A DNA stretch of 64,000 bases, taken from contig CAYHPR010000002.1 of NCBI GenBank assembly GCA_964358895.1, positions 30,773 through 94,772 of the forward strand. The letters run 5' to 3'. How positions within the stretch are numbered: position 1 is the stretch's first letter; the number at the start of each line of letters is the position of its first letter. This document shows positions 1 through 63,575 of this stretch, piece after piece. This DNA comes from Candidatus Micrarchaeota archaeon (lineage in GTDB: Archaea > Micrarchaeota > Micrarchaeia > CABMEP01). The position numbers were made by a program, and so were the translations under genes. The notes below the pieces were generated by a model that saw nothing but the letters and a program-made list of their open reading frames with translations, was not told the DNA's origin and searched no databases.

Positions 1-804
1 GGAAAGATTTGCATTTGACAATAGTTTTACCTTGTGTGCATGCGGGATATTTATCTCCGGCGTTTCTTCTATTATTACTATCCTGTCGTTTAAAGGTACG
101 AAAGAAAAAAGCGAATTGAGCGTACTGCTTTTACCGCTAGCAGTATTTCCAGCGATTATAGTGTTGTAATCTAACTGAAAGACTATCGATAAGAAAGCAA
201 GCTGTTCAGCTGAATAAACTGAACTGTTGAGAAGGTTGGAAATCGTTAGCGGGTTCTTTCTGAACTTACGAACAGTGAGCTCAACATTGGAAATCGGTGG
301 AATCGATGCGTGCAGTCGTGAGCCGTCGGGCAAAACAGCATTTAATTTTGGCTCTTGATAAGTTATTCTTCTACCAAGGGATCTAGCAATTTTATTGATA
401 ATATTGGTTGCTCCTTCTTCATTTCTAAAATATAGATTTGTTCTAAGCCAACCATATTTAGTATGATAAACATAAACCGGTTTGTCGATGCCTATGAGTG
501 CAATTTCTTCAAGCTCGTCATTTTCAAAAAGCTCGTCCAACCCACAGAATCCTGCAACATTTGAATCAATGTATCTGACAAGATAATTTGATTGTGATGG
601 ATCTAGATCAATCTGATTTATTTTGCAGTATCCTTCAAGAAGCGTTCTTATTGTTTTATTTCTATTTGCATTACTCTGCTCTTTATTAGTTGACTCGACA
701 AATAATTTAGAAATGGCTGATATAACTGTCTCTTCGGCTTTGCTCAACGGGGGAAACAATAACGGATAATCACAAGCATTTCTAGTGACAGACCAACTTA
801 ACAT
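1..804 (-). CDS. Type II/IV secretion-system ATPase (archaeal PilB/FlaI-like), N-terminal part; gene runs off the window start
   Basis: Own translation of the minus strand from ATG at 804 (MLSWSVTRNACDYP...) stays open to position 1. It contains the Walker-A-like GNTASGKSSTLNS followed by RIVIIEETPEI, typical of VirB11/PilB/FlaI ATPases. It is not in the ORF track because there is no stop inside the window. Confidence 0.7.
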   Translation of the reverse strand, partial: MLSWSVTRNACDYPLLFPPLSKAEETVISAISKLFVESTNKEQSNANRNKTIRTLLEGYCKINQIDLDPSQSNYLVRYIDSNVAGFCGLDELFENDELEEIALIGIDKPVYVYHTKYGWLRTNLYFRNEEGATNIINKIARSLGRRITYQEPKLNAVLPDGSRLHASIPPISNVELTVRKFRKNPLTISNLLNSSVYSAEQLAFLSIVFQLDYNTIIAGNTASGKSSTLNSLFSFVPLNDRIVIIEETPEINIPHAHKVKLLSNANLS

Positions 805-878
805 AATAGAGGAGCCTTCTGTAAATTAAAGAATGAAAGTGGTTGTCCCCCACATCACTAAGGAGCCTTTACTCATAC

Positions 879-1600
879 TTATTTTCCAAATCGTCTATGT
901 CTTTGTCTAAACTCGGAGATTGCTTTTTCAAAATCCTCTTTAGTTACGTCAGGCCAGAGCTTAGGGCAGAAATAAAATTCACTGTACACCGATTGCCAGG
1001 GCAATAAGCCAGAAAGTCTTTGCTCACCTGCCGATCTAAATATCAAGTCTGGATCCGAAATGTCTGGAGCATAAAGGTATGAATTGAATGTTTTTTCATC
1101 TATCTGTTTTATCTTTCCTGATTTAACATCGACTGCCATACTGTTTGCAGCATCTATCAATTCCTGCCTCCCACCGTAACCTGCCAGAAAGACTACTGTA
1201 TATTTTTTGTTTTTTCCAGTTAATTTTTCTATCTTATTTATTCGTTCAACTATGTCTTTTGGAAAAAGAGAAAGCTTACCGACCCATCTAATACTCACTT
1301 CTTTTCTTATTTTTTCAAACTCTTTGCTTTTTTCTATCCTATCCAAAAGGTTCCTGAATAATTTGAACAGTGCTTCGATTTCTACTTTTGATCTGCTAGC
1401 ATTTTCTGTTGAAAAGATCCAGATGCTAAGTGTCTTGACACCTAAATCCTTACACCATTTAACAACGTCCTTAAACTTCTCAGTACCTGCGATATGTCCC
1501 TCTGGGATTGACTTTCCGTGTTCCTTGGCCCATCTCCGGTTTATGGTCTAAAAATTCCATCCGGGATTATGCAAACATGTAGTTCTTTTGATTTTCCGAT
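879..1600 (-). CDS. uppS: cis-prenyltransferase (undecaprenyl/polyprenyl diphosphate synthase, UppS family), reading frame interrupted by a 14-nt insert at 1541..1554
   Basis: The C-terminus RSAGEQRLSGLLPWQSVYSEFYF..LWPDV..RQRHRRFGK matches the UppS signature. Homology continues upstream (NRRWAKEHGKSIPEGHIAGTEKF..IWIFSTENASRS) past the TTG used by the ORF track. The far N-terminus KSKELHVCIIPDG lies in another frame. No ATG/GTG/TTG start is available; ATC at 1600 lies 5 nt after AGGTG. Confidence 0.7.
1541..1554 (-). other. Candidate 14-nt BHB/BHL-type intron inside the uppS coding sequence
   Basis: The RNA CCGG-AUGG-AAUUUUUAGA-CCAU-AAA-CCGG forms an outer helix, a 4-bp central helix, a 3-nt bulge and a loop. 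Excision restores CCG GAU GGA AAC CGG AGA UGG, which reads PDGNRRW. Confidence 0.45.
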
Positions 1601-1615
1601 TTAAACACCTTTATT

Positions 1616-1921
1616 TTAAGAACGTTCAGCTGCTAAAATTGCATTAAAATGTTTCTCAAGTAACGTTTCAGCATTTTTCCAATGCTTTTTTGATTCCTTA
1701 ATCTTTCCAGAATCTTCAAGTTCTTCGGCTATGTCATGTTCTCTCGTAGCCTTAAAAAAATAATCTATTGCTTTTCTAGCTTCGTTTACAGAGATATTGT
1801 GAAGCAGTCTATATTTTTCAATTAAATTAGAGTATAATCTCTTTTTATCCCTACGATGGTGGGCTTTCCACCATTCGATCTCATATCTTGCTAAATTTTT
1901 AGAGATAACCTTCGTTTTCAT
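1616..1921 (-). CDS. Hypothetical protein (charged, helical)
   Basis: 101-aa ORF with coding-like composition in a co-directional gene string; no family recognised. Confidence 0.5.
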   Translation of the reverse strand: MKTKVISKNLARYEIEWWKAHHRRDKKRLYSNLIEKYRLLHNISVNEARKAIDYFFKATREHDIAEELEDSGKIKESKKHWKNAETLLEKHFNAILAAERS

Positions 1922-2032
1922 AGAATCAGTGAAGATACTGCTCTAAAAAGGAATATATGCCTTTCTTAATAAGCTCTCAAGTAATTGCTTAATCTGCGGA
2001 ATAATTAAATATGTGAACTGGCTAGATAGGAG

Positions 2033-2281
2033 ATGGGAAACATAGGATTTATTCCGACAAAAAAAGAAGCCAGGGCGATATTTACTAAAGCAAACGAACT
2101 CCATACTAGGCATATGCGAATTGTTGGAAAAGGGTTCAAAAGAGCTGGAAAATTGAATAGAACTGAACATAAAAAGATAGATTCGATAAGGTACGCCAGA
2201 CGAATGCTTTTTAGTGGACATCACGAAAAGCTTGGACTTCTTGGTCGTATTTTATATGCTAAAGAATTAGAGTCGTATTAG
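2033..2281 (+). CDS. Small basic hypothetical protein
   Basis: 82-aa K/R-rich ORF. The overlapping minus-strand ORF 1943..2224 has S/F-rich shadow-like composition, so the plus ORF is preferred. Confidence 0.3.
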   Translation: MGNIGFIPTKKEARAIFTKANELHTRHMRIVGKGFKRAGKLNRTEHKKIDSIRYARRMLFSGHHEKLGLLGRILYAKELESY

Positions 2282-2941
2282 AAAATAACCTATCAAAGCT
2301 GAAGAGATAGTGCAGATCATATTTGACGTTGACTTATTACCTATCCCCATTTCTTCAAAGATTCCTGCAATTGTATCGAATACACTTCCTAAGAAGCCAG
2401 CTATTGCAATATAAAAAATAAATGACGGATCGAAGTTATACAAAAAATAAGCAATCACTCCGATTATAAGTGCTCCGATAAAAGAAAGAAATGTTCCAAG
2501 TGCAGATATTGCTCCAGATGTACCTGCTCTGACACTTTTTAAATTTTTCAGAGAAATTGGCTTTCCTGAAAGCACGCCGAGTTCTGATCCAAATTTATCA
2601 GAAAGAGCTCCAGCAACTGAAGTTACATATGCGGCAATCCAAACTGGCGAATTCGTCAAATAAAATGCAGCACAACATAAAGTTGGGATTGAACCATTAG
2701 AAATGACATTATGCCACCCTCTCTCGTGCTCATAAACGCCTTTCTCTTTCTTTTCCTCATGTCTATACTTCGTTGCGATGACACTGATAAATAAAAATAA
2801 GAGAAGAAGTAGGATATTAGCTAACGCGTAACTTTTAGAAGTGAAAATGACGACTAAACCAATAATTAGGGAAGCAACGAAACCAGGAGTATCTAATAGA
2901 AGCGCTCTAACCAAATTATCACTTATCTGTTGTTTGTTCAC
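2267..2941 (-). CDS. DUF92/COG1836-family integral membrane protein (VTE6-like isoprenoid-phosphate kinase family)
   Basis: Multi-TM protein with GALSDKFGSELG and SGAISALGT motifs resembling the DUF92 DTxASExG / GxxSxxGT pattern. It lies next to uppS. Confidence 0.5.
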   Translation of the reverse strand: MNKQQISDNLVRALLLDTPGFVASLIIGLVVIFTSKSYALANILLLLLFLFISVIATKYRHEEKKEKGVYEHERGWHNVISNGSIPTLCCAAFYLTNSPVWIAAYVTSVAGALSDKFGSELGVLSGKPISLKNLKSVRAGTSGAISALGTFLSFIGALIIGVIAYFLYNFDPSFIFYIAIAGFLGSVFDTIAGIFEEMGIGNKSTSNMICTISSALIGYFLIRL

Positions 2942-3947
2942 CTATTCCTCTAACTGACAACTTACTGTCTTTTACATCGAATGAAATATTTGTAAACTTT
3001 GGTATAAGCCACATACAGGTTTTAGCATGTTGAGTAAGTTCTGGAACTGAAATTGATGACTCTCCATTTGCTAGCGCCATAAAAATAAGAAGCTGGTCTG
3101 ACATCCATCTATCGACAGTCGCTTGATTTGATATTTCCTTCTTCAGATCGAGCGCAACAGATCTACCAAGATCCTCTGATTTCAGACCAATTTTACCGAG
3201 ACTAGAAACACCAACTACTGTATTCTGAAATTCGGCCCAAAGAGTCAGTCCGGTGCCTGGAGATTGGGAGGACATAACAATTTTCTGTATCGAAGCGTCT
3301 GGAAGAACACTTTTTACTGCACTTATTTGTCGGTCGGCTACGTCTTCTTTAAGATTCGATAAAGCACAAACTCCCTTTATTCCATACAATAATCCTTTGT
3401 CATTAATCTCTATACCTGCCAGTTTTGAAGGATGTACTTCTATAGTCGTTGACCCTCCGCCGCGCGGATACCAGCCAAGCGAATCAACAAAAGAAACGAT
3501 CTTTGCTCCGAACCTTGCCGTAAGAGGTATGAACACGTTTCTGTAGAAATCAGTTGTTGGAGACCAGGCCACATGCGTTCCTCCAGTTAGTTTCAGCACG
3601 GATTTTTCTTTTCCGAATAGCAATACCGGAACCAATGACTGCGCTAAAAGAGTTACAGAGCCTGCCGTACCGATATCGAACGAATACTCGCCTTGTTTGA
3701 TCGCTTTTGGCGAAAAGCCCAGTTCCTGGGAACCTATTGATGCGCCCGTAACTACTGCATCGGTTATTTTAGCCATCGCCTGCACGCAAGTAAGGTGCTG
3801 CGGCTGAAGACCTGGTTTCGTACGGCCTGCTCGGATGTTCTTGATAACGAACGGTTTGCCTAGAATTGCAGATAAAGATAGAGCAACCCTTAAGATCTGG
3901 CCCCCTCCCTCTTCATAACTGCCGTCAATTTCAATAATATCTGTCAT
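2919..3947 (-). CDS. rtcA: RNA 3'-terminal phosphate cyclase
   Basis: N-terminus IEIDGSYEEGGGQILRVALSLSAILGKPFVIKNIRAGRTKPGLQPQHL is the RtcA signature; 342 aa is the typical length. Confidence 0.9.
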   Translation of the reverse strand: MTDIIEIDGSYEEGGGQILRVALSLSAILGKPFVIKNIRAGRTKPGLQPQHLTCVQAMAKITDAVVTGASIGSQELGFSPKAIKQGEYSFDIGTAGSVTLLAQSLVPVLLFGKEKSVLKLTGGTHVAWSPTTDFYRNVFIPLTARFGAKIVSFVDSLGWYPRGGGSTTIEVHPSKLAGIEINDKGLLYGIKGVCALSNLKEDVADRQISAVKSVLPDASIQKIVMSSQSPGTGLTLWAEFQNTVVGVSSLGKIGLKSEDLGRSVALDLKKEISNQATVDRWMSDQLLIFMALANGESSISVPELTQHAKTCMWLIPKFTNISFDVKDSKLSVRGIGEQTTDK

Positions 3948-17406: not shown

Positions 17407-17408
17407 AG

Positions 17409-17481
17409 TGGGGTCGCTGAGATTTGAACTCAGATCACCAGCTCCCAAAGCTGGTAGCATGCCAAGTTAGCCCACGACCCC
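17409..17481 (-). tRNA. tRNA-Pro (UGG), uninterrupted
   Basis: Reverse complement GGGGTCGTGGGCTAACTTGGCATGCTACCAGCTTTGGGAGCTGGTGATCTGAGTTCAAATCTCAGCGACCCCA folds as a cloverleaf, with anticodon loop TTTGGGA. Confidence 0.9.
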
Positions 17482-19641: not shown

Positions 19642-19765
19642 GCTTCGGTCGTCTAGTCCGGTTAAGGATCTTGGCCTTTCGTACAACTTTTAGTAAAAGT
19701 TTGATCAAACTTGACTAAATTTGTAAAGTTAGCCAATGACCCGGGTTCAAATCCCGGCCGGAGCA
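19642..19765 (+). tRNA. tRNA-Glu (UUC) with a 49-nt intron at 37/38 (19682..19730)
   Basis: GCTTCGGTCGTCTAGTCCGGTTAAGGATCTTGGCCTTTCG[49 nt]AGCCAATGACCCGGGTTCAAATCCCGGCCGGAGCA. Anticodon stem TTGGC/GCCAA, loop CTTTCGA. Confidence 0.85.
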
Positions 19766-30623: not shown

Positions 30624-31613
30624 ATGGGAACAACGGAAACATTAGAAAAAGAAAAAAAAAGTAGTATAAGAACTTTACTTAAGCTGAATAAAAATAATCT
30701 GTACAGAACAAAAGAATTAATAGAAAACATAATTAGTGAGGTTTCAAAAAATCCCGTGAAGGAATATAATCCAGTAAATAAAGAAAAAATAAGAAAAGAA
30801 TACGAAGACTTAACTGAAGCAGAATGTAAGGAGTATGTCGAAGTTATTAAAGCCTTAGAGATCACATCAACTCAAGAAAATATAGTAATGATAGATAAGT
30901 TGTTGTATCTTAACTATGGAGATATAACGCGTCTTTCGCAAGAATACATGGTCCTTAACGATGAAAATGAAAGATTAGCTATGAAAGACGGGGCGGTAAA
31001 GATCGCTAAATTTGTAAAGGATAATGATATAAAAGAAATAATTGTTTTAGAAAAAAGCGGAAGACCTATGGCTTTTTTCTTTGAATTAGTTTGGAAAAGG
31101 ATATTCTCAACAATCGAATTACCTAAAATTTACTACCTAGATCCATCGGAGTTTGCGCCTCACTATAAAGAAACCGATCAACCAAAACATGTAATAAAAT
31201 CATTTCTGCCCGAATTATACAAAACTAGCCGAATTTTTAATAGGATTCTAAATAAGTTGAATAAGGTAAAAGAAAAGTCCATCCTAATATTGGACGACTT
31301 CTTTAAAACAGGCGAACAACTCGACAGAACTAAAAAAGCATTAAAATCTATTTTAAAAATAGATAATATCTATACTGGAGCAATTGTTTCAAAATCAGAA
31401 CGAGAGTATGGATTAATAACGCCAGATGTATATGGTCCCGAGGTTAAAAATAAAACAAATTTTTCTGAGTATGTAGGATATTCTGAAATGTCACTTTCAA
31501 TCCATGAAAAATTACCTAAACTTGAGGGCAGACATCTTTGGCGTTTTTTGAGGAAAGAGCAGTTAAATAGAGATTTGATTAAGTTAGCAGAGACAATAGA
31601 CGCAGTTATATAA
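30624..31613 (+). CDS. Hypothetical protein with phosphoribosyltransferase-like PRPP-loop motif
   Basis: SILILDDFFKTGEQL resembles the PRTase VLIVDDxxxTGxT loop; the rest is unrecognised. Confidence 0.45.
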   Translation: MGTTETLEKEKKSSIRTLLKLNKNNLYRTKELIENIISEVSKNPVKEYNPVNKEKIRKEYEDLTEAECKEYVEVIKALEITSTQENIVMIDKLLYLNYGDITRLSQEYMVLNDENERLAMKDGAVKIAKFVKDNDIKEIIVLEKSGRPMAFFFELVWKRIFSTIELPKIYYLDPSEFAPHYKETDQPKHVIKSFLPELYKTSRIFNRILNKLNKVKEKSILILDDFFKTGEQLDRTKKALKSILKIDNIYTGAIVSKSEREYGLITPDVYGPEVKNKTNFSEYVGYSEMSLSIHEKLPKLEGRHLWRFLRKEQLNRDLIKLAETIDAVI

Positions 31614-32897: not shown

Positions 32898-33442
32898 TTT
32901 TAGACCTATGATATTTGTTTTTTAATCTATTAATTCTTTCTATTCTGATGTTTTACTTGAATTTTATACAGCTTACGCTAGCAGTCTGCGAAATTAATTA
33001 AGAAAAAAGAATAGGATGAGTGAAGAACACGGAAACTTGAGAAATAGGAGATTTAGTATTGGACTGGCACACAAATCGCTTGCGCTCTTTGCTTACACCA
33101 CCAACCTATCAAACCCGTCTGCTACGGGCTCCCACAGCTGACTCGTTTTGGGAGATCCTTCGACCTTAGATGCTTTCAGGTCTTATGATCTGGCGCGTGG
33201 CTGCCCGGCGATGCTTGTTACAACCGGTATACTAGAGGCGCCTACCCTCTGTTCCTCTCGTACTCAGAGGATATTACCCTCAGTCAACAACACTCCCAGT
33301 AGATACTACCGTACTGTCTCGCGACGTACTGAACCCAGCTCGTGTACCTCTTTAACGGATGTACAACCCGACCCTTGGAAGCTCCTGCACTTCCAGGATG
33401 AGATAAGCCGACAGCGATGTACCAAGCCGCGGGGTCGATATG

Positions 33443-33490
33443 TACGCGATAGTCTAATTAGTGTTTGACGAAAACTAGGCTATCGCAGGG
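33443..33490 (-). other. 23S insertion 1 (48 nt, ORF-less) inside the H89-equivalent GAGT|CATATCGAC block
   Basis: Conserved CGATATG..TACTCTCGCCCGCG is split by a hairpin, GCGATAG..CTATCGC. The boundary is ambiguous by the repeated TAC. Confidence 0.6.
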
Positions 33491-33513
33491 TACTCTCGCC
33501 CGCGACGAGCCTG

Positions 33514-33860
33514 TTTTGGGTCATTCCAGCAAAAATAAAATTACGAATAATTAATTTACGAATTTGATTTGTTATGAATAGAATTATTGACGTAGCTAAA
33601 CGTCAAAATTTACGAGGTTTATTCGTAAATTATCCATAAAGAATCCAGAGTTTCGACTAAAGCATTTTTGAAAAAAATTCGAGAATCAAGAAAAATTCAA
33701 GATTAAATCTAAGAGTAACTCTAAGAGTATTTCTAAGATAAAATCTACGATTATATCTAGATATCTAAAATTATTTTCATATTGTTTGCGCTTTAGGTGT
33801 GGTAGTAAGAGGAGATCAAACTAAACCACACTCTGGACTCCAAAATTTTCACTGAAACGA
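33514..33860 (-). other. 23S insertion 2 (347 nt, ORF-less, AT-rich) splitting GGGG(G/A)UAA|CAGGCU
   Basis: Exon halves ..gagcctg (33507-33513) and ttacccccgggg (33861-) rejoin to the universal CCGGGGATAACAGGCTGAT-like block. There is no ORF of 60 aa or more; internal TTACGAAT and TCTAAGAGTA repeats are present. Confidence 0.7.
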
Positions 33861-34029
33861 TTACCCCCGGGGTAACTTGTCTGACAGATTGAGCCCTTAT
33901 CAAAAGGATTTCAATGTTCATTAAGCCCGACTTTCGTCTCTGCGAGACATACTGTTAGTCTCACAGTCAGTCCTGCATTTCTCTTTAACCGTTATCATCC
34001 GACGTTCAGCGATGATGAGCGTCATTCGC

Positions 34030-34129
34030 TGCTTTGCCTCATCATAAACTTTTAGGAAATCTTTCGAAAATAAATTTCGAAAAATTGTTTTATAAAAAGT
34101 TTCTGAGGTTGTACATAATATCATTCGCA
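34030..34129 (-). other. 23S insertion 3 (about 100-150 nt, ORF-less, long AT hairpin); boundaries uncertain
   Basis: CCTCA..AAACTTTT....AAAAGTTT..TGAGG hairpin flanked by the direct repeat TCATTCGC. The region is longer than the corresponding E. coli or haloarchaeal segment as recalled from memory. Confidence 0.5.
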
Positions 34130-34536
34130 CATCACTGATCACTTTCGTTTCTGACCGGATTAAGCAGAACATTGGGCGCCTTTATTTCCTTATCGAAGGC
34201 GTACTGCCCCAGCCAAACTATCCATCTGCAGCTGTTCCTTTTCAGGTTAGAAACACAAAAATTGTAAAGTGGTGTTACATTGGTGCATCCACCTCGGCCG
34301 CGACCAAGGTTTCTACGCTCCCACTTACGCTATGTAACAATTCCTATATTTCAACAACAGACTATAGTAAAGCTCCACGGGGTCTTCGTTTCCCACTAGG
34401 AGTCCTCCGCATATTCACGGAGCAGTGAGTTCACCAGGTCCCTCTCTGGGACAGTGGGGGATTCGTTATGCCCTTCATGCAAGTCGCCAATTAAGCGACG
34501 AGGTATTACGCTACCTTAAGAGGGTCAGATTGGTAC

Positions 34537-34567
34537 AAAATTTCTATTAGAAATTTTCTAGAAATCT
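34537..34567 (-). other. 23S insertion 4 (about 31 nt) in the GGTAAACGGCGG|CCGTAAC-equivalent block
   Basis: aaaatttctattagaaattttctagaaatct interrupts otherwise conserved sequence immediately 5' (RNA sense) of CTTAAGGTAGCG. Confidence 0.5.
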
Positions 34568-35617
34568 CGTGTTACCCCCGCTCTTCGCCAGCCCTTTGTG
34601 CCCTTGAACGAGCGTATCGGGTACTGGTAGTGAGCAGGCATCGCCTTCCATACTAGACATTGCTATTTTGCGTAAAGCTGTGTTTTTGGTAAACAGTCGA
34701 TCCCCCCAATTCACTGCGACCTGCGCATGCAACTTGCGTCACAAACGCAGGCAATCCTTGTACCGAAGGTACGGATCTATTTGGCCGAATTCCCTAGAGA
34801 GAGTTCCCCTGCCACGCCTTAGAATTTTCATCTTGCAGCACCTGTACTGGATCTTGGTACGATCACAACGAATCGGATAGAGAAATTTTTCACGGACCCA
34901 AAGCGTACGCCAAACCGCCTAAGGGCGGCTATTCGCATATTATACTGCTTCTCCTCATAATGAGACTCCACAGTACTATGTTGCTTAAACAGAGTCTCCC
35001 CTGCTCAGCTTAGCTTCAGATGTCAATCTCTACCTTGTGTTGCCACGTCTATCGTTGTGGCTGCCGAATATTAACGGCATTCCCTTTCATGTCCTAGTAA
35101 TTGGCTGGACATTTAGGATCGGCTAACTCTTGGCTGTCGAACGTTGCCAAGAAAACCGAGTGCTTTCGGCGTTCAGGATTCTAACCTGAATTTGCTGCTA
35201 CTGACGCCAGGATATTTATTGCAAAACGGTCCATAGGAGCTCACGCCCCTACTTCTGCCCGTTCCGCACACCTTCCTACCAGATTACGTATTTTGTACGT
35301 ACTCTTGGGTATCAGAAATCAGTTTAGTCCCGTACATTTTCGGAATGTGTACTTCTTCTAGTAAACTAGATCGAGCGGTCCGCTATTACGCGTTGCTTAG
35401 ACGATGGCTGCTTCTGAGCCTACGTCCCGCTTGTCTAGAAATGAACACTCCTTGTGACTTCACACTTAACTGATATTTAGGGTCTTTAACCCAAGTTTCG
35501 GTCGTTCCCGTCACGGCACACTAGCTTACCCAGTGCAACCCGACTCTCAACTTCTACAATGAACAAAGATTCGGAGTTTGACAAGAAAGCAGACTCTTTC
35601 GAATCTATTCTCCCTAA

Positions 35618-36547
35618 TCAGTGCTCTACCCCTTGTTCCATCTCCATTGAGGTCATCCTGATGGATGCTTCGGAAGGAACCCGCTTTCGCGGACTTAAAA
35701 GGCTATTAAGTTCGTTTTTCTTCCGGATAACCGGAATATGAGTATAAAATCTTTTTACATTTTCAAGACCATTAATATACAAATCATAAGTTGATCTGTT
35801 TTTGTATGGTCCTGCTGAATTTATTGGGAAAGTTGAAAGTGCTTTCCTAATAAATTCTAAAGATTCTTTGTTTGTCTGCGTGATTTTTAGCTTATATCTC
35901 CCTGTTTTTTCAACTGTTTTAACAGAAGGGCAATATCCTTCTGCGTCGAAAAAACCAGCAATATATTTACTCCACAACTTCTTATTTTCAGCTATCATTT
36001 TTGGTGTCGACCACGTTGTTTGTCTTGTCGGCATTTCAAAAACTTTTTCGAAAAAGATAACTAAAGGTTTAGATGAAAACCTTAGTCTGTAACTTTCTCT
36101 ATCTTTTTCTATAACTCCTTTAATTCGGAAGTTCATCTGAAAAATCTTGCTTAAATATTTCAACCAAAATTCAGCATATTTTCCGCTTTGAGTTATTACG
36201 ATATCGTTTTTTCTCCCAGTTTTTCTGAGATTTCCGTCCCTCAAAGCACCTACAAGATAAGCTACATCTTCGTTTATTTTAGGAATCTTTATTCCTTTAT
36301 TGCTAAGAGACCTAATGTCTTTGGCAATTGTTAGGATTTCACTTTTTTCCTTTTCGTTCGAAATTTCCAAAAGCAAATCTAACGGAATTGCAACCCCTGA
36401 AAGATAACTATATTTTGTAGATCTTTTCAATTTGCCGAGTTTTTCGAAGTGAGTTTTAACAATCTCTTCACAACCTGTTATGAAAAGATTCTCACCTTTG
36501 AAATATTCAACAAGAAGCTGTTTATCACGCATACAGTTTTTACTCAA
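35618..36547 (-). CDS. LAGLIDADG homing endonuclease (double-motif), intron-encoded in 23S
   Basis: Motifs VAYLVGALRDGNL and YIAGFFDAEGYC. The last 22 codons of the ORF-track model read into the downstream rRNA exon. The likely ATG start is at 36532. Confidence 0.85.
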   Translation of the reverse strand: MSKNCMRDKQLLVEYFKGENLFITGCEEIVKTHFEKLGKLKRSTKYSYLSGVAIPLDLLLEISNEKEKSEILTIAKDIRSLSNKGIKIPKINEDVAYLVGALRDGNLRKTGRKNDIVITQSGKYAEFWLKYLSKIFQMNFRIKGVIEKDRESYRLRFSSKPLVIFFEKVFEMPTRQTTWSTPKMIAENKKLWSKYIAGFFDAEGYCPSVKTVEKTGRYKLKITQTNKESLEFIRKALSTFPINSAGPYKNRSTYDLYINGLENVKRFYTHIPVIRKKNELNSLLSPRKRVPSEASIRMTSMEMEQGVEH

Positions 36548-36561
36548 TTAGCCCTTTAAAT
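35684..36561 (-). other. 23S insertion 5 (878 nt) with LAGLIDADG ORF, splitting GCGAUAG|CGGGUUCC (E. coli GAGAUAGCUGGUUC block)
   Basis: Flanking sequences rejoin to the conserved ..CAATCGAACATCGCGATAG+CGGGTTCCTTCCGAAGC. Confidence 0.7.
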
Positions 36562-37554
36562 CTATCGCGATGTTCGATTGGACTTTCACCCCTATTCCAA
36601 GGTCACCCAAGTGGATATACCAACACTGGTTGCGGCCCTCCACCAATCGTTAGATCGGCTTCAGCCTGCCCCGGAATAGATCACAACCGCTTCGGGTCAT
36701 ACAATAGTGATCAAACGCATTTTCATACGTCCCGCCTCGTTCAGCACTGCGCGGAATTGCTTTCGCTACGTCTTTCGACTCACCACTACCGTATACTCCC
36801 TGGCTCTTGATTCGAGAAGTACGATGCAACACTGGTCCATTTTCCTGGTCCACTGCCTTGCGACAGTTTGCTTCGGAAAACTTCGACCCTTTCGTGCCAC
36901 ACCAACCTGTAACCATTCAGTTTCAGGCTCTTTTCAAAGGTCTTTCGACCTACTTTTCAACGTTCGCTCACGCTACTAATTCGCTATCGGTCTTGGATAC
37001 TTGTTTAGGATTAGAGGTTGATCCCCCCAACTTCGTGCTCCATTCTCGAGGAGCACTACTCACATCGTTACCCTCCTTTACGTTTTGCTTACGGGACTAT
37101 CACCCTTTGTCGTAAGACTTTCCAGTCTACTTCAGCTCCTGTAAAGGATAGTTGTAACGCCCACATCCACTACATATTACTATGCAGAGTTCGGTTTGTC
37201 CTGTCCGGCTTTCGGTCGTCTTACTCACCGGATCCCAATTGGTTTTTCTTCCTTCGGTTACTGAGATATTTCAATTCACCGAGTTTTTGTCCATTCCTGG
37301 ACGCACAGATATCTTCGGTTCAACGTTCGCATGCAACTCCCCGAAGCTTTTCGCAGCTTGCCACGTCTGCTTGAAATCCAAGCCTGGCCATCCCCTGAAT
37401 GGCGTATTAACTTCTCACTGTTCTCGTGTCCTTCACTCAAACCTATAAATCAGCGTCACAGCACATTCTCATGTGCTCAGCAATCCTTTGTCCAATCATT
37501 CGGACAAAATCATACTTCAACGAAACTTCGACGCTATTAACGTCAAAGTTTCTA

Positions 37555-37769
37555 TGGACTCGGCGTGATTCCCGCATAAGAACCTATGGTTCTTATTATC
37601 TCCTAGGCAATTGCCTAGATCGTTTCGGTTTCGAACACGCAGCCTCCTCCTGTTTTGGAAACTTTTTTTGTTAAGAAGTTTCATCATCAAACCAGCCGTT
37701 TTTTGATGAAACTTTTTCTTACAAAAAGTTTCTTGCAAAGGAGGCGCTCTACCATTGAGCTACGAGCCC
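37555..37769 (-). tRNA. tRNA-Ala (UGC) in the 16S-23S spacer, with two introns (82 nt at 37/38: 37652..37733; 61 nt in the T-loop: 37569..37629)
   Basis: Exons GGGCTCGTAGCTCAATGGTAGAGCGCCTCCTTTGCA / AGGAGGAGGCTGCGTGTTCGAA / TCACGCCGAGTCCA assemble to a 72-nt cloverleaf with the G3:U70 Ala identity pair and T-loop TTCGAAT. Confidence 0.8.
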
Positions 37770-38281
37770 AGTATTAACACTTCAAGGTCCTTCAGTGGAC
37801 ATATATGCTCTGAATTTTTTAGAAAAAAATCTAACCAAAAACAAGTTTTGATCAAACTTTCAAGAAAAAATTGTTCAACGTTTGAATTAAGTATCAAACA
37901 ATTGACGTTTTTAACGTCAATATTTAGCAATTTGCATTGCTAATCAAATTAATTACGCACACGACTCTCACAAATTTTTATTTTCATAAAATATTGGAGG
38001 TGATCTATCCGCAGGTTCCCCTACGGATACCTTGTTACGACTTAGCCCCCCTCATAAAAATTTGGTTCGAGGCTACCAATTTCTCAATAGCGCCTCACCA
38101 GACTCTCACTTGGGTGACTTGACGGGCGGTGTGTGCAAAGAGCAGGGACCGATTCACCGTACGATTGTGACATACGATTACTAGGGATTCCAGCTTCATG
38201 AGGGCGAGTTTCAGCCCTCAATCCGAACTTAGACTAGGTTTCGGGGATTAGCTCCACCTTTCGGTGTGGCAACCCATTGTC

Positions 38282-38911
38282 CTAGCCATTGTAGGCCACG
38301 TTAGGCTCTCGCGAGGTAAATTTAGGATGATAAGTATAAATTTTACGAAAATAAGCATCAGTATTATTGAAACCATTTATTTGGAGTCCATACATTTTGC
38401 CTGAATTCCAAGTAGAGAATTTCAATCCTAGATCTTTCAATAGGAAAGCCAGTTCATCTCTTATTGTTTTATTTACTACATGCATTGCAATTCTTGGATA
38501 GATGTATGTTCTTCTTTCTTTTTTTACTACTTTTCGTGTGATGCAACCTTCTGCATCCATCCACCCTCCAATATACGATGCCTTAGTTTTACTTCCTGAA
38601 TTCATGATCCATTCTGGCGTTTTCATTTGAAAAGTTTTCGTCCTTCCTTCAGGAACACCCAGTTTAATCAAGAAATTGTAGAGTTTTTTCGACCAAATTC
38701 TTATTCTATAACAAATATTACCTAAAGCAGTTTTCATCACATAAATTTTTGCTTTTATGTTCAACGTTTCTTCAAATAGTTTTGTTACAGTTTGTAAAAA
38801 TTCGAAAGAAGGATCTACAATATTGATTTCATAGTTACCTTTTCCATCTTTTGAAAGGCTTCCGTCGCCCCCAATTAGACCTACCAAATAAGCCAAAGAT
38901 TTTCTTTTCAT
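38282..38911 (-). CDS. LAGLIDADG homing endonuclease (double-motif), intron-encoded in 16S
   Basis: Motifs LAYLVGLIGGDGSL and ASYIGGWMDAEGCI. The ATG (MKRKSLAYL) is at 38911. The frame is open over the entire intron, and the last 6 codons lie in the exon. Confidence 0.85.
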   Translation of the reverse strand: MKRKSLAYLVGLIGGDGSLSKDGKGNYEINIVDPSFEFLQTVTKLFEETLNIKAKIYVMKTALGNICYRIRIWSKKLYNFLIKLGVPEGRTKTFQMKTPEWIMNSGSKTKASYIGGWMDAEGCITRKVVKKERRTYIYPRIAMHVVNKTIRDELAFLLKDLGLKFSTWNSGKMYGLQINGFNNTDAYFRKIYTYHPKFTSREPNVAYNG

Positions 38912-38992
38912 TATCTTTGTCAAATTTTTGTAGTTTTTAAAGGTTATGAGACACCTAACAACCGGTGATCCTAAGGATATTTTACCTCGCAA
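38300..38992 (-). other. 16S insertion 1 (693 nt) with LAGLIDADG ORF, splitting GGGCTACAC|GTGGCCTACAATGG
   Basis: Intron termini are complementary (CTCGCGAGGTAAA / TTTACCTCGCAAG). The exons rejoin to the archaeal GGGCTACACGYGGGCTACAATGG block. Confidence 0.75.
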
Positions 38993-39015
38993 GTGTAGCC
39001 CGGGAGATTAGGGGC

Positions 39016-39145
39016 TTTAGCCGTCGATAGCAGTGTAAATATAACAACTGCCTGCCGGCTCCCAAAAATCTTTGGCTAACATGTTCTGCGACATATTTGT
39101 GCAAAGTGCTGTGTTTAATGTGGTGTTGTGATACCACTATCGACG
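39016..39145 (-). other. 16S insertion 2 (130 nt, ORF-less) splitting ..GGTCAGTATA|GCCCCTAATC.. (E. coli CATCATG|GCCCTTA block)
   Basis: Terminal inverted repeat GTCGATAG..CTATCGAC. The flanks rejoin to GGGGCATACTGACCTACCGTCGCC-like conserved sequence (plus-strand view). Confidence 0.65.
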
Positions 39146-39259
39146 TATACTGACCTACCGTCGCCCTCTCCTTCCTCTGTTTTAACAACAGCGGTTCCTT
39201 TAGAGTGCCGCTTCCCCGGAGGAAAACGTTGCAACTAAAGATGAGGGTCTCGCTCGTTT

Positions 39260-39848
39260 CCAGACTCAATGGTAACGCCACAAAAGAAATAAGCATGATT
39301 AATGTTTAGTTTTATTTTCAGATTTTTCAGGTCTGTATTTTATTAATGAAAGAAAATTTTCAACGTCTCTGATCCAGAGATCTTTTCCCTTTCGTTTAGT
39401 ATAGAACCCAAGATGTTCAATCAGTAACTGATCTTGGAAGTTTGTGTTATGAATAATACTTCCATCTCCGTCTGATATGTACATCCCCCTTAGAAAAGAT
39501 GCGGATAAATTATTTTTTCTTCCAAATATCTCATTTTGATTTTTTAGAGTGTTTAAGAAGAAAGTCTTAATTTTGTGATGAGAGAACCAGATAGCTCTAT
39601 CTTCACTTACAATCTTTTCAGGAGGAACTAATCTAAGTTTGAGAACCATTTCGACAAATTTTTCTTGTTTATCAAAATTTCCAAATACTCCTACACTCTG
39701 ACGAGTACGTCTGAGTTTCCAGAATCCGATAAATTCTGCTAATTCGTTTGTCAATTTTAATTTCATATTCTCATCTTAGTTGTTTAGTTCTTTATTCTTT
39801 CTTTTTGTTTCTTTTGTGGACATTCACCAAAGAGTTTACTGGACTTAA
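39260..39848 (-). other. 16S insertion 3 (589 nt) with a short LAGLIDADG-like ORF, splitting GGTTAAGTCCAG|AAACGAGCGAGACCC
   Basis: The flanks rejoin to the universal GTTAAGTCC.GCAACGAGCGCAACCC block; the boundary is known to within a few nt. Confidence 0.7.
39299..39766 (-). CDS. LAGLIDADG-like protein, short (155 aa), first motif degenerate
   Basis: The second motif FLRGMYISDGDGSI is intact. The N-terminal LAEFIGFWKLRRT occupies the first-motif position but lacks the acidic residue. Confidence 0.65.
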   Translation of the reverse strand: MKLKLTNELAEFIGFWKLRRTRQSVGVFGNFDKQEKFVEMVLKLRLVPPEKIVSEDRAIWFSHHKIKTFFLNTLKNQNEIFGRKNNLSASFLRGMYISDGDGSIIHNTNFQDQLLIEHLGFYTKRKGKDLWIRDVENFLSLIKYRPEKSENKTKH

Positions 39849-40208
39849 CCAGACAGCTCACGCCACGAGCTGACGATGGCCATGCACCACCTCTCGGCTC
39901 GTTAGGTAAGATCTTTAGTCTGACCTTCATCCTGCCGTCGCTCCCGGTAATATTCCCGGCGTTGAATCCAATTAAACCGCAGCCTCCACCCCTTGTGGTG
40001 CTCTCCCGCCAATTCTTTTAAGTTTTAAGCTTGCGCTCGTACTCCCCAGGTGGCAGACTTAACGCTTACGCTACGGCACTGCCAATCCTCGAAGGAAAGG
40101 CAACACCTAGGTCTGCATCATTTACTGCTAGGGCTACATGGGTATCTAATCCATTTCGTTCTCCTAGCCTTCGCACCTCACCGTCAGACATGTTTTAGCC
40201 AGACGCCT

Positions 40209-40260
40209 AAACGCTTTCTTTCAGTTTCTTTGATGAAACTTTTCTTTTAGAAAGAAAGTT
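40209..40260 (-). other. 16S insertion 4 (52 nt, ORF-less) splitting GGCGA|AGGCGTC
   Basis: The flanks gacgcct / tcgccgc rejoin to the conserved GCCTTCGCC block. The insert is an AT hairpin containing AAAAGTTTCATCAAAGAAAC (RNA sense). Confidence 0.7.
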
Positions 40261-40467
40261 TCGCCGCTGTGGGTCCGTACAGGATTAACGGATTTTACTC
40301 CTACTCTATACGTACCTCTGGCCCCCCCCATTCTCAAGCTCGGTAGTACTCTCTGCACGCCTTTCGGTTAAGCCGAAAGATTTCACAGAGAACACGCCGA
40401 ACCGGCTACGTGCGCTTTAAACCCAATATACGTGGATACCACTCGGGCTGCCGGTATTACCGCGGCT

Positions 40468-40512
40468 TCCAGTTTCATTACGATGTAAAACGTGTAATTT
40501 CGTAAGGAAATG
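40468..40512 (-). other. 16S insertion 5 (45 nt, ORF-less) inside the universal GTGCCAGC|AGCCGCGGTAA (515-533) block
   Basis: attaccgcggct[45 nt]gctggcac, with an internal TTACGA..TCGTAA hairpin. Confidence 0.75.
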
Positions 40513-41224
40513 GCTGGCACCGGTCTTACCCAGCCCTTATTCTATCTGCTATTTACACAAATCAAAAGACCCTCTAAAAGAGGATCACTCGGAATTTCTT
40601 TGTCACGCTTTCGCGCATTGCAAAATTTTCGCGCCTGCTGCATCCCGTAGGACTAGGGCCCTTGTCTCAGTGCCCTTCTGGGGGCTCCAACTCCCATTGC
40701 CCCTACCGATAATCGGTTTGGTGAGCCGTTACCTCACCAACAGCCTAATCGGCCGCAGTCCAATCGTTAAGCCCACACCATACAATTCTGGTGCAGATTT
40801 CAGTCAGGAGGCGTTCCAGATCTCCAGACCTATAATGTATTATCCTCAATTTCTCGAGGTTATCCACTTCTAAACGTTATGTTGACCACGTGTTACTCAG
40901 CCGTGTGCCACGACTCCATAAGAAGTCGTCGACTTGCATGGCTTAGCCAAATTCCGATAGCAGTACCCTCCAGCAAGATCAACTGGAATTACGTCGATGT
41001 TTGTCGACGAGTATATTTATTTCTGTATGTTTTGACGAGCTCAAACGCTGTTGCTAACTTATCAGTTAGCGGTCGAGCACATATGTCCCTTGCTGAACCT
41101 TGAAGTGTATATCGAATCCAAACTTACGTCTTGGATTCTCATGGTAATAGTGTACGCTGCAGTGGAAACATGCAATTCATTGCACGAGAAAAAGACCCGT
41201 ACTCCTCTTGGCCGTTCTACAGCT

Positions 41225-58626: not shown

Positions 58627-58750
58627 GCCAGGGTAGCTCAGTTTGGTTAGAGCGCCAGACTCATAAGATCTTAAAACTCAAGACCGATCGATGTCTGTCA
58701 TCGGTTTCTAAGAAATCTGGAGGCCGAGTGTTCAAATCCCTCCCCTGGCA
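58627..58750 (+). tRNA. Elongator tRNA-Met (CAU; could be tRNA-Ile2) with a 49-nt intron at 37/38 (58666..58714)
   Basis: GCCAGGGTAGCTCAGTTTGGTTAGAGCGCCAGACTCATA[49]ATCTGGAGGCCGAGTGTTCAAATCCCTCCCCTGGCA, with one U:C mismatch in the T-stem. Confidence 0.8.
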
Positions 58751-63441: not shown

Positions 63442-63575
63442 GCAGGGGTGGCGGAGCTTGGAAATCGCGCAAGACTTAAGACCTTAAGCGATCTCGCACA
63501 AAACTTTCTTAGAATAAAGTTTGTAGGAGATCTTGTGCCTTAGTGGCTACGTGGGTTCAAATCCCACCCCCTGCA
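63442..63575 (+). tRNA. tRNA-Leu (UAA) with a 49-nt intron at 37/38 (63481..63529)
   Basis: GCAGGGGTGGCGGAGCTTGGAAATCGCGCAAGACTTAAG[49]ATCTTGTGCCTTAGTGGCTACGTGGGTTCAAATCCCACCCCCTGCA. It has a long variable arm and is 85 nt when mature. Confidence 0.85.

Follow-up and report, generated by a model that had tools for sequence, protein, structure and literature searches.

The 16S rRNA gene of a Micrarchaeota archaeon, located at positions 37995 to 40989 (minus strand) of a 64,000-nucleotide (nt) stretch of contig CAYHPR010000002.1 (assembly GCA_964358895.1, contig positions 30,773 to 94,772; the whole stretch is called the window below), is interrupted by five inserts, which are very probably all archaeal bulge-helix-bulge (BHB) introns. 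We number them I1 to I5 in the direction of transcription. A first-pass annotation of this DNA had proposed introns of the Thermoproteales type, and this assignment is supported by BHB motifs at the five junctions, by the lack of any group I or group II intron signal, and by RNA joints observed in close relatives for I1, I2 and I5. The likeness concerns the type of intron and not the host, which is a mesophilic DPANN archaeon rather than a crenarchaeote.

The Rfam covariance model of the archaeal small-subunit (SSU) rRNA, RF01959, matches the minus strand from 37995 to 40989 over its full length (model positions 1-1478 of 1478, 1041.5 bits), in agreement with the 2995-nt extent proposed earlier, and the gene comprises six exons and five introns. 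The precursor RNA begins with AUUCCAGUUGAUC and ends with GAUCACCUCCA. In the alignment, all five extra stretches appear as insert states within conserved blocks. This agrees at each of the five places with the earlier reading of flanking motifs, and the alignment, which had been recommended as a check, assigns the extra stretches to inserts within conserved cores rather than to expansion segments. Counted between the flanking motifs of the first-pass annotation, the inserts measure 45, 52, 579, 130 and 693 nt; the third, between GTTAAGTCCAG and AAACGAGCGAGACCC, covers RNA positions 1152-1730 (579 nt), where Rfam shows an insert of 580 nt. The lengths of 693, 52 and 45 nt had been given correctly, whereas the third insert had been counted as 589 nt, an error of ten, and the fourth is 131 nt long rather than 130. 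The inserts consequently sum to 1500 nt and not to 1509 nt, and the predicted mature 16S rRNA is 1495 nt and not 1486 nt long. The argument built on that figure, namely that the spliced length is normal for an archaeal 16S rRNA, is retained, and removing the five inserts restores conserved sequences at the junctions as well as this length. The GC content is ~50% in the exons and ~30% in the large inserts. At the junctions that were checked (both of I5, both of I4, and those of I3, I2 and I1), contigs from two independent groundwater DNA runs agree fully with the window, and the open reading frame (ORF) of I3 was found on separate ENA and Logan assemblies, from samples named Hain_H52_02um (Hainich groundwater). 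Since identical junctions recur in independent DNA runs and assemblies, the insert structure is real DNA and not an assembly artefact.

Splice sites were placed with a rule derived from the canonical pre-tRNA motif, in which the first exon ends with the 4 nt of the central helix and 2 nt of the bulge, the last nucleotides of the intron are the 4 complementary ones and 2 of the bulge, and the intron stem begins after the first bulge. The scan for the motif covered ±8 nt around each 16S insert. A strict BHB was found at the junctions of I1, I2, I3 and I5, and a relaxed one at those of I4. Across the 16S gene, a strict BHB occurs at a frequency of 4.5e-4 of position pairs; for four of the five inserts, it is present among the 1-3 pairs that the covariance-model boundaries permit. 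Given this low rate, four matches at joints determined beforehand are not due to chance. By our own approximate count, we take the introns to lie after E. coli positions ~523 (I1), ~729 (I2), ~1101 (I3), 1205 (I4) and ~1226 (I5).

I1 (40467..40511, on the minus strand like the others; RNA 479-523, 45 nt) lies within the 515-533 primer site, where the mature sequence joins GUGCCAGCC to GCCGCGGUAA. Its central helix is CCAG/CUGG, with bulges CCA and AAG and an inner stem of 4 bp followed by 6 bp. I2 (40208..40259; RNA 731-782, 52 nt; mature GGCGAA joined to GGCG) has a central helix GGCG/CGUU and an inner helix of 9 bp, its minimum free energy (MFE) fold reaching z = -2.4. I3 (39258..39836; RNA 1154-1732, 579 nt) encloses an ORF of 155 amino acids (aa); its central helix is CCAG/CUGG, its bulges UAA and AAA, and its closing stem measures 4+6+12 bp. 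Alignment by itself would place I3 at E. coli 1093-1094, and the BHB register moves the cut to after ~1101. The junction first proposed for I3, CCAG followed by AAACGAG, was rejected, the BHB register giving CCAGUA joined to ACGAG and the uninterrupted sequence of a relative (L004) reading GUCGAGUAACGAGCG. I4 (39016..39146; RNA 1844-1974, 131 nt) has no ORF, and the mature sequence joins GGUCAGUAU to GCCCC. Here the central helix is of 3 bp (AGU/GCU) with a C.A mismatch, the bulges are AUA and AAG, and the inner helix is of 13 bp (MFE fold z = -2.9). The junction GUAUA to GCCCC proposed earlier would leave one A too many, and relatives and all RNA contigs support GUAU followed by G; L004 is uninterrupted at this site, with CAGUAUGGUC. 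Folded together with short flanks, I1, I2 and I4 show the BHB motif in their MFE structures. I5 (38302..38994; RNA 1996-2688, 693 nt), which carries a LAGLIDADG gene, has a central helix GGCU/AGCC, bulges ACA and UAA and a 13-bp inner helix, its boundary being ambiguous by 2 nt owing to an AC repeat. It is separated from I4 by a micro-exon of 21 nt (exon 5, 38995..39015, minus strand), GCCCCUAAUCUCCCGGGCUAC.

RNA evidence comes from rRNA contigs in four freshwater-sediment metatranscriptomes, which derive from a relative ~98-99% identical to the exons. One contig of 480 nt matches 39956-40207 without mismatch and 40260-40466 with four mismatches, skipping exactly 40208-40259 (I2) and then 40467-40511 (I1). 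The I2 joint is found in RNA contigs of all four runs, whose flanking matches of up to 459 nt contain 0-4 mismatches, and the I1 joint in those of three runs at 90% likeness. At I5, one contig agrees with exon 6 at all of 97 nt up to 38301 and then continues with GTAGCCCGGGAG, which corresponds to the 12 nt of 38995-39006, so that I5 is absent from the RNA of that relative. The RNA contigs of exon 4 all cease matching at 39147, the boundary of the 131-nt form of I4. The first-pass annotation had reasoned that reads covering the inserts at the depth of the exons would speak for their retention; in the contigs of this relative, I3 and I5, the large inserts, have an RNA depth of zero. The DNA of a more distant relative (X6, X9; L129) possesses I1 and I2, and by parsimony the sediment relative should therefore have both.

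Comparison with the DNA of relatives shows both turnover of the introns and conservation of their stems. A contig designated L129 (ENA ERZ27247916 k141_3727825, 490-3409), whose 16S is 88-98% identical to that of the window, carries I1 to I4 and is exactly without I5, the intron-less allele reading GGGCUACACGUGGCCUACAAUGG; it has, after position ~1281 of the mature RNA, a different intron of ~565 nt whose ORF is of 180 aa. Sediment DNA contigs of relatives likewise carry I1, I2 and I4 and skip exactly the 693 nt of I5. Intron content thus turns over between near relatives. The stems of I1, I2 and I3 show compensatory changes between the window and L129: in I3, A-U to G-C, G.U to G-C and U-A to U.G; in I1, the loss of two pairs at the foot of the upper stem together with the gain of two above; and in I2, matching deletions on both strands that keep the helix. 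Farther away, the 3038-nt 16S gene of a distant Micrarchaeota metagenome-assembled genome (L004) holds about eight inserts. In both L004 and L005, a homolog of the I5 endonuclease occupies the 16S site of I5, where the BHB is canonical and the stem unrelated in sequence, and L006 has an intron 5' junction at that site. In a relative from DNA run X9, a 30-nt hairpin, CCCAATAGTCAGTACTCGGCTACTATTGGA (plus strand), replaces most of I4 (window 39023-39144), possibly as a size variant of the intron at 1205.

The adjacent 23S rRNA gene (33033..37422, minus strand; Rfam RF02540, 2026 bits) is of the same style, with 4390 nt against a model of 2987 positions. It contains three introns on the minus strand: the first (35686-36563, 878 nt) has a BHB and a LAGLIDADG ORF at 35618-36547 (LAGLIDADG_3, 4e-11), the second (34004-34148, 145 nt) has a BHB, and the third (~33514-33860, 347 nt) has a relaxed BHB. 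The relative's RNA contigs, the longest of 1558 nt, omit precisely 878 nt and 145 nt of the 23S, and one contig bridges the third joint in the register that yields the canonical GGGGGUAACAGGCU, which gives an intron of 347 nt. The strict-BHB register of that intron (345 nt) was rejected, as its product would be 2 nt too long relative to this RNA join. The window also holds four tRNA genes, three of which have a 49-nt intron just after the anticodon: tRNA-Glu(UUC) at 19642-19765, tRNA-Met(CAU) at 58627-58750 and tRNA-Leu(UAA) at 63442-63575, all on the plus strand. Only tRNA-Pro (17408-17481) has none. The intron-bearing tRNAs were detected by Rfam and by the intron mode of ARAGORN and were missed by ARAGORN at its default setting. 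The 64 kb thus contain eight rRNA introns and three tRNA introns.

Several points weigh against the interpretation of the five inserts as spliced BHB introns. The RNA contigs come from a sediment relative and not from the groundwater population, and a relative devoid of introns would give the same picture; the argument for splicing of I1 and I2 is accordingly one of phylogenetic bracketing, and for I5 the bracket fails, since relatives do lack this intron. The RNA support for I4 consists of the homology stopping at 39147, no RNA contig crosses the I3 joint even at 88% likeness, and no public RNA run holds words of I5, which leaves circular introns unsupported. Both I4 and the third 23S intron require the relaxed motif, and in the latter the strict register conflicts with the RNA by 2 nt. 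Finally, a scan of the 20 largest ORFs of the window revealed neither the splicing endonuclease EndA nor the ligase RtcB.

In a very improbable alternative, the inserts would be excised and the exons left unligated, which would give a 16S rRNA in fragments joined through base pairs, as in the intervening sequences of some bacterial rRNAs. Some rRNA insertions of other lineages are indeed removed without ligation, and the origin of the RNA in another population and the missing I3 junction read would be compatible with such an outcome. Against it stand the continuous RNA contigs over I1, I2 and I5 and over the three 23S joints in near-identical relatives, as well as the micro-exon between I4 and I5, a free piece of 21 nt being hard to retain. 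In archaea, moreover, BHB cleavage is coupled to ligation by RtcB.

Even less credit is given to three other explanations. If I3 and I5 were self-splicing introns of group I or group II, they would have a precedent in the group I introns with LAGLIDADG ORFs of Micrarchaeota 23S and 16S genes (PMC6125680). The reported sites differ from those observed here, I3 and I5 have canonical BHBs with long closing stems, and no Rfam group I or group II family matches at its gathering score anywhere in the 64-kb window, nor at E<=1 with relaxed filters over 38290-39845, the region from I3 to I5, although Rfam may not cover every group I subtype. The ribozyme identity was therefore rejected. A pseudogene of the rRNA in the course of decay, or a chimeric assembly, with a clean 16S gene elsewhere in the genome, draws on the fact that just 64 kb of the genome are visible; it is very hard to reconcile with the full-length 1041-bit match of the exons and their intact helices, with the identical contigs in independent runs and assemblies, with the linked 23S gene of the same style and with the many DPANN genomes whose 16S is equally loaded. 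Nothing positive speaks for expansion segments retained in the mature 16S apart from the RNA not being from the same population, and this explanation was rejected in view of the position of the inserts (which break up the 530 loop and further core elements, single-stranded and helical, that are universally conserved), by the splicing motif that brackets each of them, by RNA contigs of near-identical rRNAs that lack them, and by the endonuclease-type ORFs of two inserts, one of them polymorphic in DNA.

The BHB introns I3 and I5 both encode proteins, for which a LAGLIDADG ORF in the 693-nt insert and a short LAGLIDADG-like ORF in the third insert had been proposed. The first is confirmed by profile: the I5 gene (38282..38911, minus strand, 209 aa from its ATG) matches Pfam LAGLIDADG_3 (PF14528) in two stretches, at 5.2e-13 and 49.5 bits against a cutoff of 22.5. 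Its two motifs, YLVGLIGGDGS and SYIGGWMDAEGC (LIGGDGS and WMDAEGC), both retain the catalytic acid, as in LAGLIDADG homing endonucleases. Homologs of 46-50% identity occupy the corresponding position of the 16S gene in L004, L005 and L006, and both intron-plus and intron-minus alleles exist at this single target site. I5 is likely an active homing element. The I5 ORF extends beyond the 3' splice site and takes up 20 nt of exon 6 (38282-38301), and the ORF of the first 23S intron reads 68 nt past its own 3' splice site (35618-35685); the C-termini of both proteins are consequently encoded by conserved rRNA sequence.

The second proposal is borne out by structure modelling. The I3 ORF (39299..39766, minus strand, 155 aa) has no Pfam match, including to any LAGLIDADG profile, and only three relatives at the level of words. 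An exhaustive profile search extended the family to 92 cluster representatives of ~150-170 aa; of 60 members taken individually, three reach LAGLIDADG_3, and the best sequence match of the family profile in the PDB is PI-PfuI at the second motif (E = 0.12). An AlphaFold2 model built from a 60-sequence alignment has a pLDDT of 95.2 and a pTM of 0.89 and replaces an earlier model from four sequences (pLDDT 57.5). In this model, the protein forms two alpha-beta-beta-alpha-beta-beta-alpha half-domains, a compact double-LAGLIDADG fold, and the top 20 Foldseek matches are all I-DmoI (TM ~0.6, prob 1.0). The catalytic acid at position 8 is not kept in both motifs: in motif 1 it is replaced by W16, with Trp in 43 of the 60 family members, and in motif 2 it corresponds to D99, a position variable in the family and Asp only in the subclade of the window. 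On the basis of the model, the family has a predicted homing-endonuclease fold without the canonical two-acid active site, I3 appears to carry a degenerate or repurposed I-DmoI-like protein, and this protein is probably no longer a double-strand cutter.

The spread of the I3 family over at least 92 clusters at 50% identity, more than one rRNA intron site and at least one free-standing copy argues for a function other than homing. A homolog of 58% identity (L128; ENA ERZ27247989 k141_3496239, 107-565) adjoins a glycosyltransferase gene on a 2.2-kb contig that has no 16S similarity anywhere, and looks like such a free-standing copy. In L016, L012 and L004, tblastn finds family members beyond the 16S span. 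Two roles may be considered: (i) a maturase or chaperone for the folding of intron-laden pre-rRNA during BHB splicing, and (ii) a nicking enzyme. No maturase is known for BHB introns. That the I3 protein is a member of a family of miniature I-DmoI-like proteins, conserved rather than decaying and lacking canonical double-strand cleavage, is a tentative proposal that we consider rather unlikely.

Drawing on established archaeal biology, we propose that the 16S gene is transcribed with its introns and that each pair of junctions would fold into two 3-nt bulges with a 4-bp helix between them, closed by the intron stem. The tRNA-splicing endonuclease EndA, which in Micrarchaeota would be of the broad-specificity epsilon-2 type, would cut both bulges, and an RtcB-type ligase would join the exons and probably circularise the introns. 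The end product would be the normal 16S rRNA of 1495 nt, and splicing of this population's own RNA is inferred. I1, I2 and I4 are hairpin introns without an ORF. I5 would behave as a mobile element, whose endonuclease would, at E. coli ~1226, cleave alleles that lack the intron, which repair would then copy into them (homing). The capacity for such processing in this phylum is in agreement with the work of Fujishima et al. 2011 (PMC3239211), who showed that the epsilon-2 endonuclease of ARMAN-2 cleaves strict and relaxed BHBs in vitro and that disruption affects 56% of ARMAN-2's tRNA genes.

The other genes of the window identify the host. Its aCPSF1 is 72% identical to proteins of 'Candidatus Micrarchaeia archaeon', and the named matches are overwhelmingly to Micrarchaeota, so that the host is a Micrarchaeota (DPANN) archaeon of the Hainich groundwater. 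Besides aCPSF1/FttA, the archaeal housekeeping genes include TruD, CDC48, a topoisomerase and ThyX. A gene for RtcA, the RNA 3'-terminal phosphate cyclase, lies at 2919-3947 (minus strand; Pfam RTC, 3.6e-82); this enzyme makes the 2',3'-cyclic phosphate ends used in RtcB-type ligation. The spacer between the 16S and 23S genes (37423-37994, 572 nt) contains no tRNA, and when the sequences directly flanking the 16S gene (37423-37994 and 40990-41120) were folded, no clear processing stem enclosing the whole gene and bearing a BHB emerged. In a relative, the aCPSF1 protein (P0016, 1065 aa) carries LAGLIDADG_3 and intein domains (PF14528, PF14890) and is an intein-interrupted copy, which suggests that homing-type elements are generally common in this lineage.

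Among the systems described, the closest in kind are the 16S introns of Thermoproteales, Desulfurococcales and Aigarchaeota, for which Jay & Inskeep 2015 (PMC4496867) listed 13 crenarchaeal and aigarchaeal loci, including 722, 1093, 1205 and 1213. As in our gene, those introns are bounded by BHBs, lie at highly conserved positions and interrupt universal primers, and LAGLIDADG-encoding introns are mixed with short ones made of a hairpin only. Locus 1205 is common to both sets, and a hairpin intron stands closely upstream of an endonuclease intron in both (1205 and 1213 there, 1205 and ~1226 here). Positions ~523 and ~1226 of our own E. coli count are absent from the 13 loci, and ~729 and ~1101, 7-8 nt away from 722 and 1093, may be the same loci or different ones. 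Unlike those hosts, the present one is a low-GC (~32%) mesophilic DPANN archaeon, with introns of ~30% GC against exons of ~50% and five introns in one gene.

Within the Micrarchaeota, Sakai et al. 2022 (PMC8784108) described a 522-bp insertion at 'E. coli 1093' of the 16S gene in the cultivated strain ARM-1, to which an insertion in ARMAN-2 corresponds. The insertion codes for a hypothetical protein, and its function and splicing were stated to be uncertain. I3 fits this insert by its phylum, its 16S region, its size (~520-580 nt) and its protein of ~150 aa without recognisable homology, the likeness to UNLARM2_0643 being one of description. Beyond that description, I3 has a junction with a strict BHB, a covarying 22-bp stem and a protein whose model matches I-DmoI. 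In Desulfurococcus mobilis, I-DmoI is itself a monomeric two-motif LAGLIDADG protein encoded in an archaeal BHB intron, that of the 23S rRNA. This architecture recurs in the ORFs of I5 and of the 23S intron, and no structure matches the I3 protein better than that of I-DmoI, from which it differs in length (155 against ~190 aa), in being only 15-18% identical and in having W for the catalytic Asp of motif 1. Group I introns with LAGLIDADG ORFs were reported in Micrarchaeota rRNA by Nawrocki et al. 2018 (PMC6125680), at 1923, 1931 and 2593 of the large-subunit (LSU) rRNA and at SSU 1498, and BHB and group I introns were found to co-occur in one gene. The phyla and host genes are the same as here, whereas our inserts lack a group I signal and occupy other sites. 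The rRNA insertions of the Candidate Phyla Radiation (CPR, or Patescibacteria; PMC11270868) offer another parallel, their hosts being episymbiotic groundwater organisms with small genomes and several inserts, many of them with LAGLIDADG genes; those inserts are absent from the mature rRNA and have the same consequence for primers. Unlike the present case, the hosts are bacteria devoid of a BHB/EndA pathway, and the inserts are group I, group II or unclassified.

To place I1 in a broader context, the GTDB species genomes were scanned for an insert within GTGCCAGCC...GCGGTAATAC, the counts being those of the matches listed and thus lower bounds. At least ~29 DPANN genomes, mostly of Micrarchaeota, have a mini-intron at position 523 or 526, and the other hosts among the matches listed are Aenigmarchaeota, Woesearchaeota, Nanoarchaeota and Iainarchaeota. 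Two classes are distinguished. Class A shares the position of I1, the intron following ...GCC and ending in CUGGAA before GCCGCGG. In eight class-A sequences, both sides change in all eight inner-helix pairs, and 92.7% of the cells pair, against 23-49% with slid partners, a value reached by none of 500 shuffles. Class B lies 3 nt downstream, between GCCGCC and GCGG, with introns of 28-38 nt (AUG...CACGGUAC) that form a 3-4-3 BHB with a central helix GCCG/CGGU and end in CACGGUA[AC] before GCGG. It was found in at least 21 loci (L010-L121) of Micrarchaeota, Aenigmarchaeota, Woesearchaeota, Nanoarchaeota and unnamed archaea. Among the matches listed, the scanned DPANN genomes have between 33 and ~3800 extra nt per 16S, and a doubled 16S is common in these genomes.

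These introns bear directly on surveys by amplicon sequencing. He et al. 2021 (PMC7906910) reported that intron-containing 16S genes hamper the detection of DPANN with universal primers. For the present gene, disruption of the 515F/806R-type primer site had been claimed, which is correct for 515F, split by I1. The 806R target (40129-40148, minus strand), ATTAGATACCCATGTAGCCC, is free of introns and intact, with two mismatches to ATTAGAWACCCBNGTAGTCC in our own reading that are independent of the introns; it is I2 that lies inside the V4 amplicon. Since the 515F site is split after 523 and the V4 amplicon contains I2, the most widely used amplicon surveys would overlook the organism or obtain from it amplicons ~100 nt too long. 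The same fate is expected for at least ~29 other DPANN species with a mini-intron at 523 or 526, and pipelines that expect a 16S of 1.5 kb will misread this gene.

The introns described here are a known kind of element, unusually dense in this gene and not new in kind. To what was known are added exact splice sites backed by the RNA joints of relatives, the spread across DPANN of the mini-intron at the 515F site, and a model-based structural identification of the family of proteins encoded by the Micrarchaeota '1093' insertion. The last of these bears on the splicing and the ORF of that insertion, a point left open in PMC8784108, for which the covarying BHB of I3 and the predicted I-DmoI fold of its protein are now available. 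More generally, the locus presents in compact form the natural range of archaeal introns, from hairpins of 45 nt to endonuclease-bearing elements, with their gain and loss visible between close relatives.

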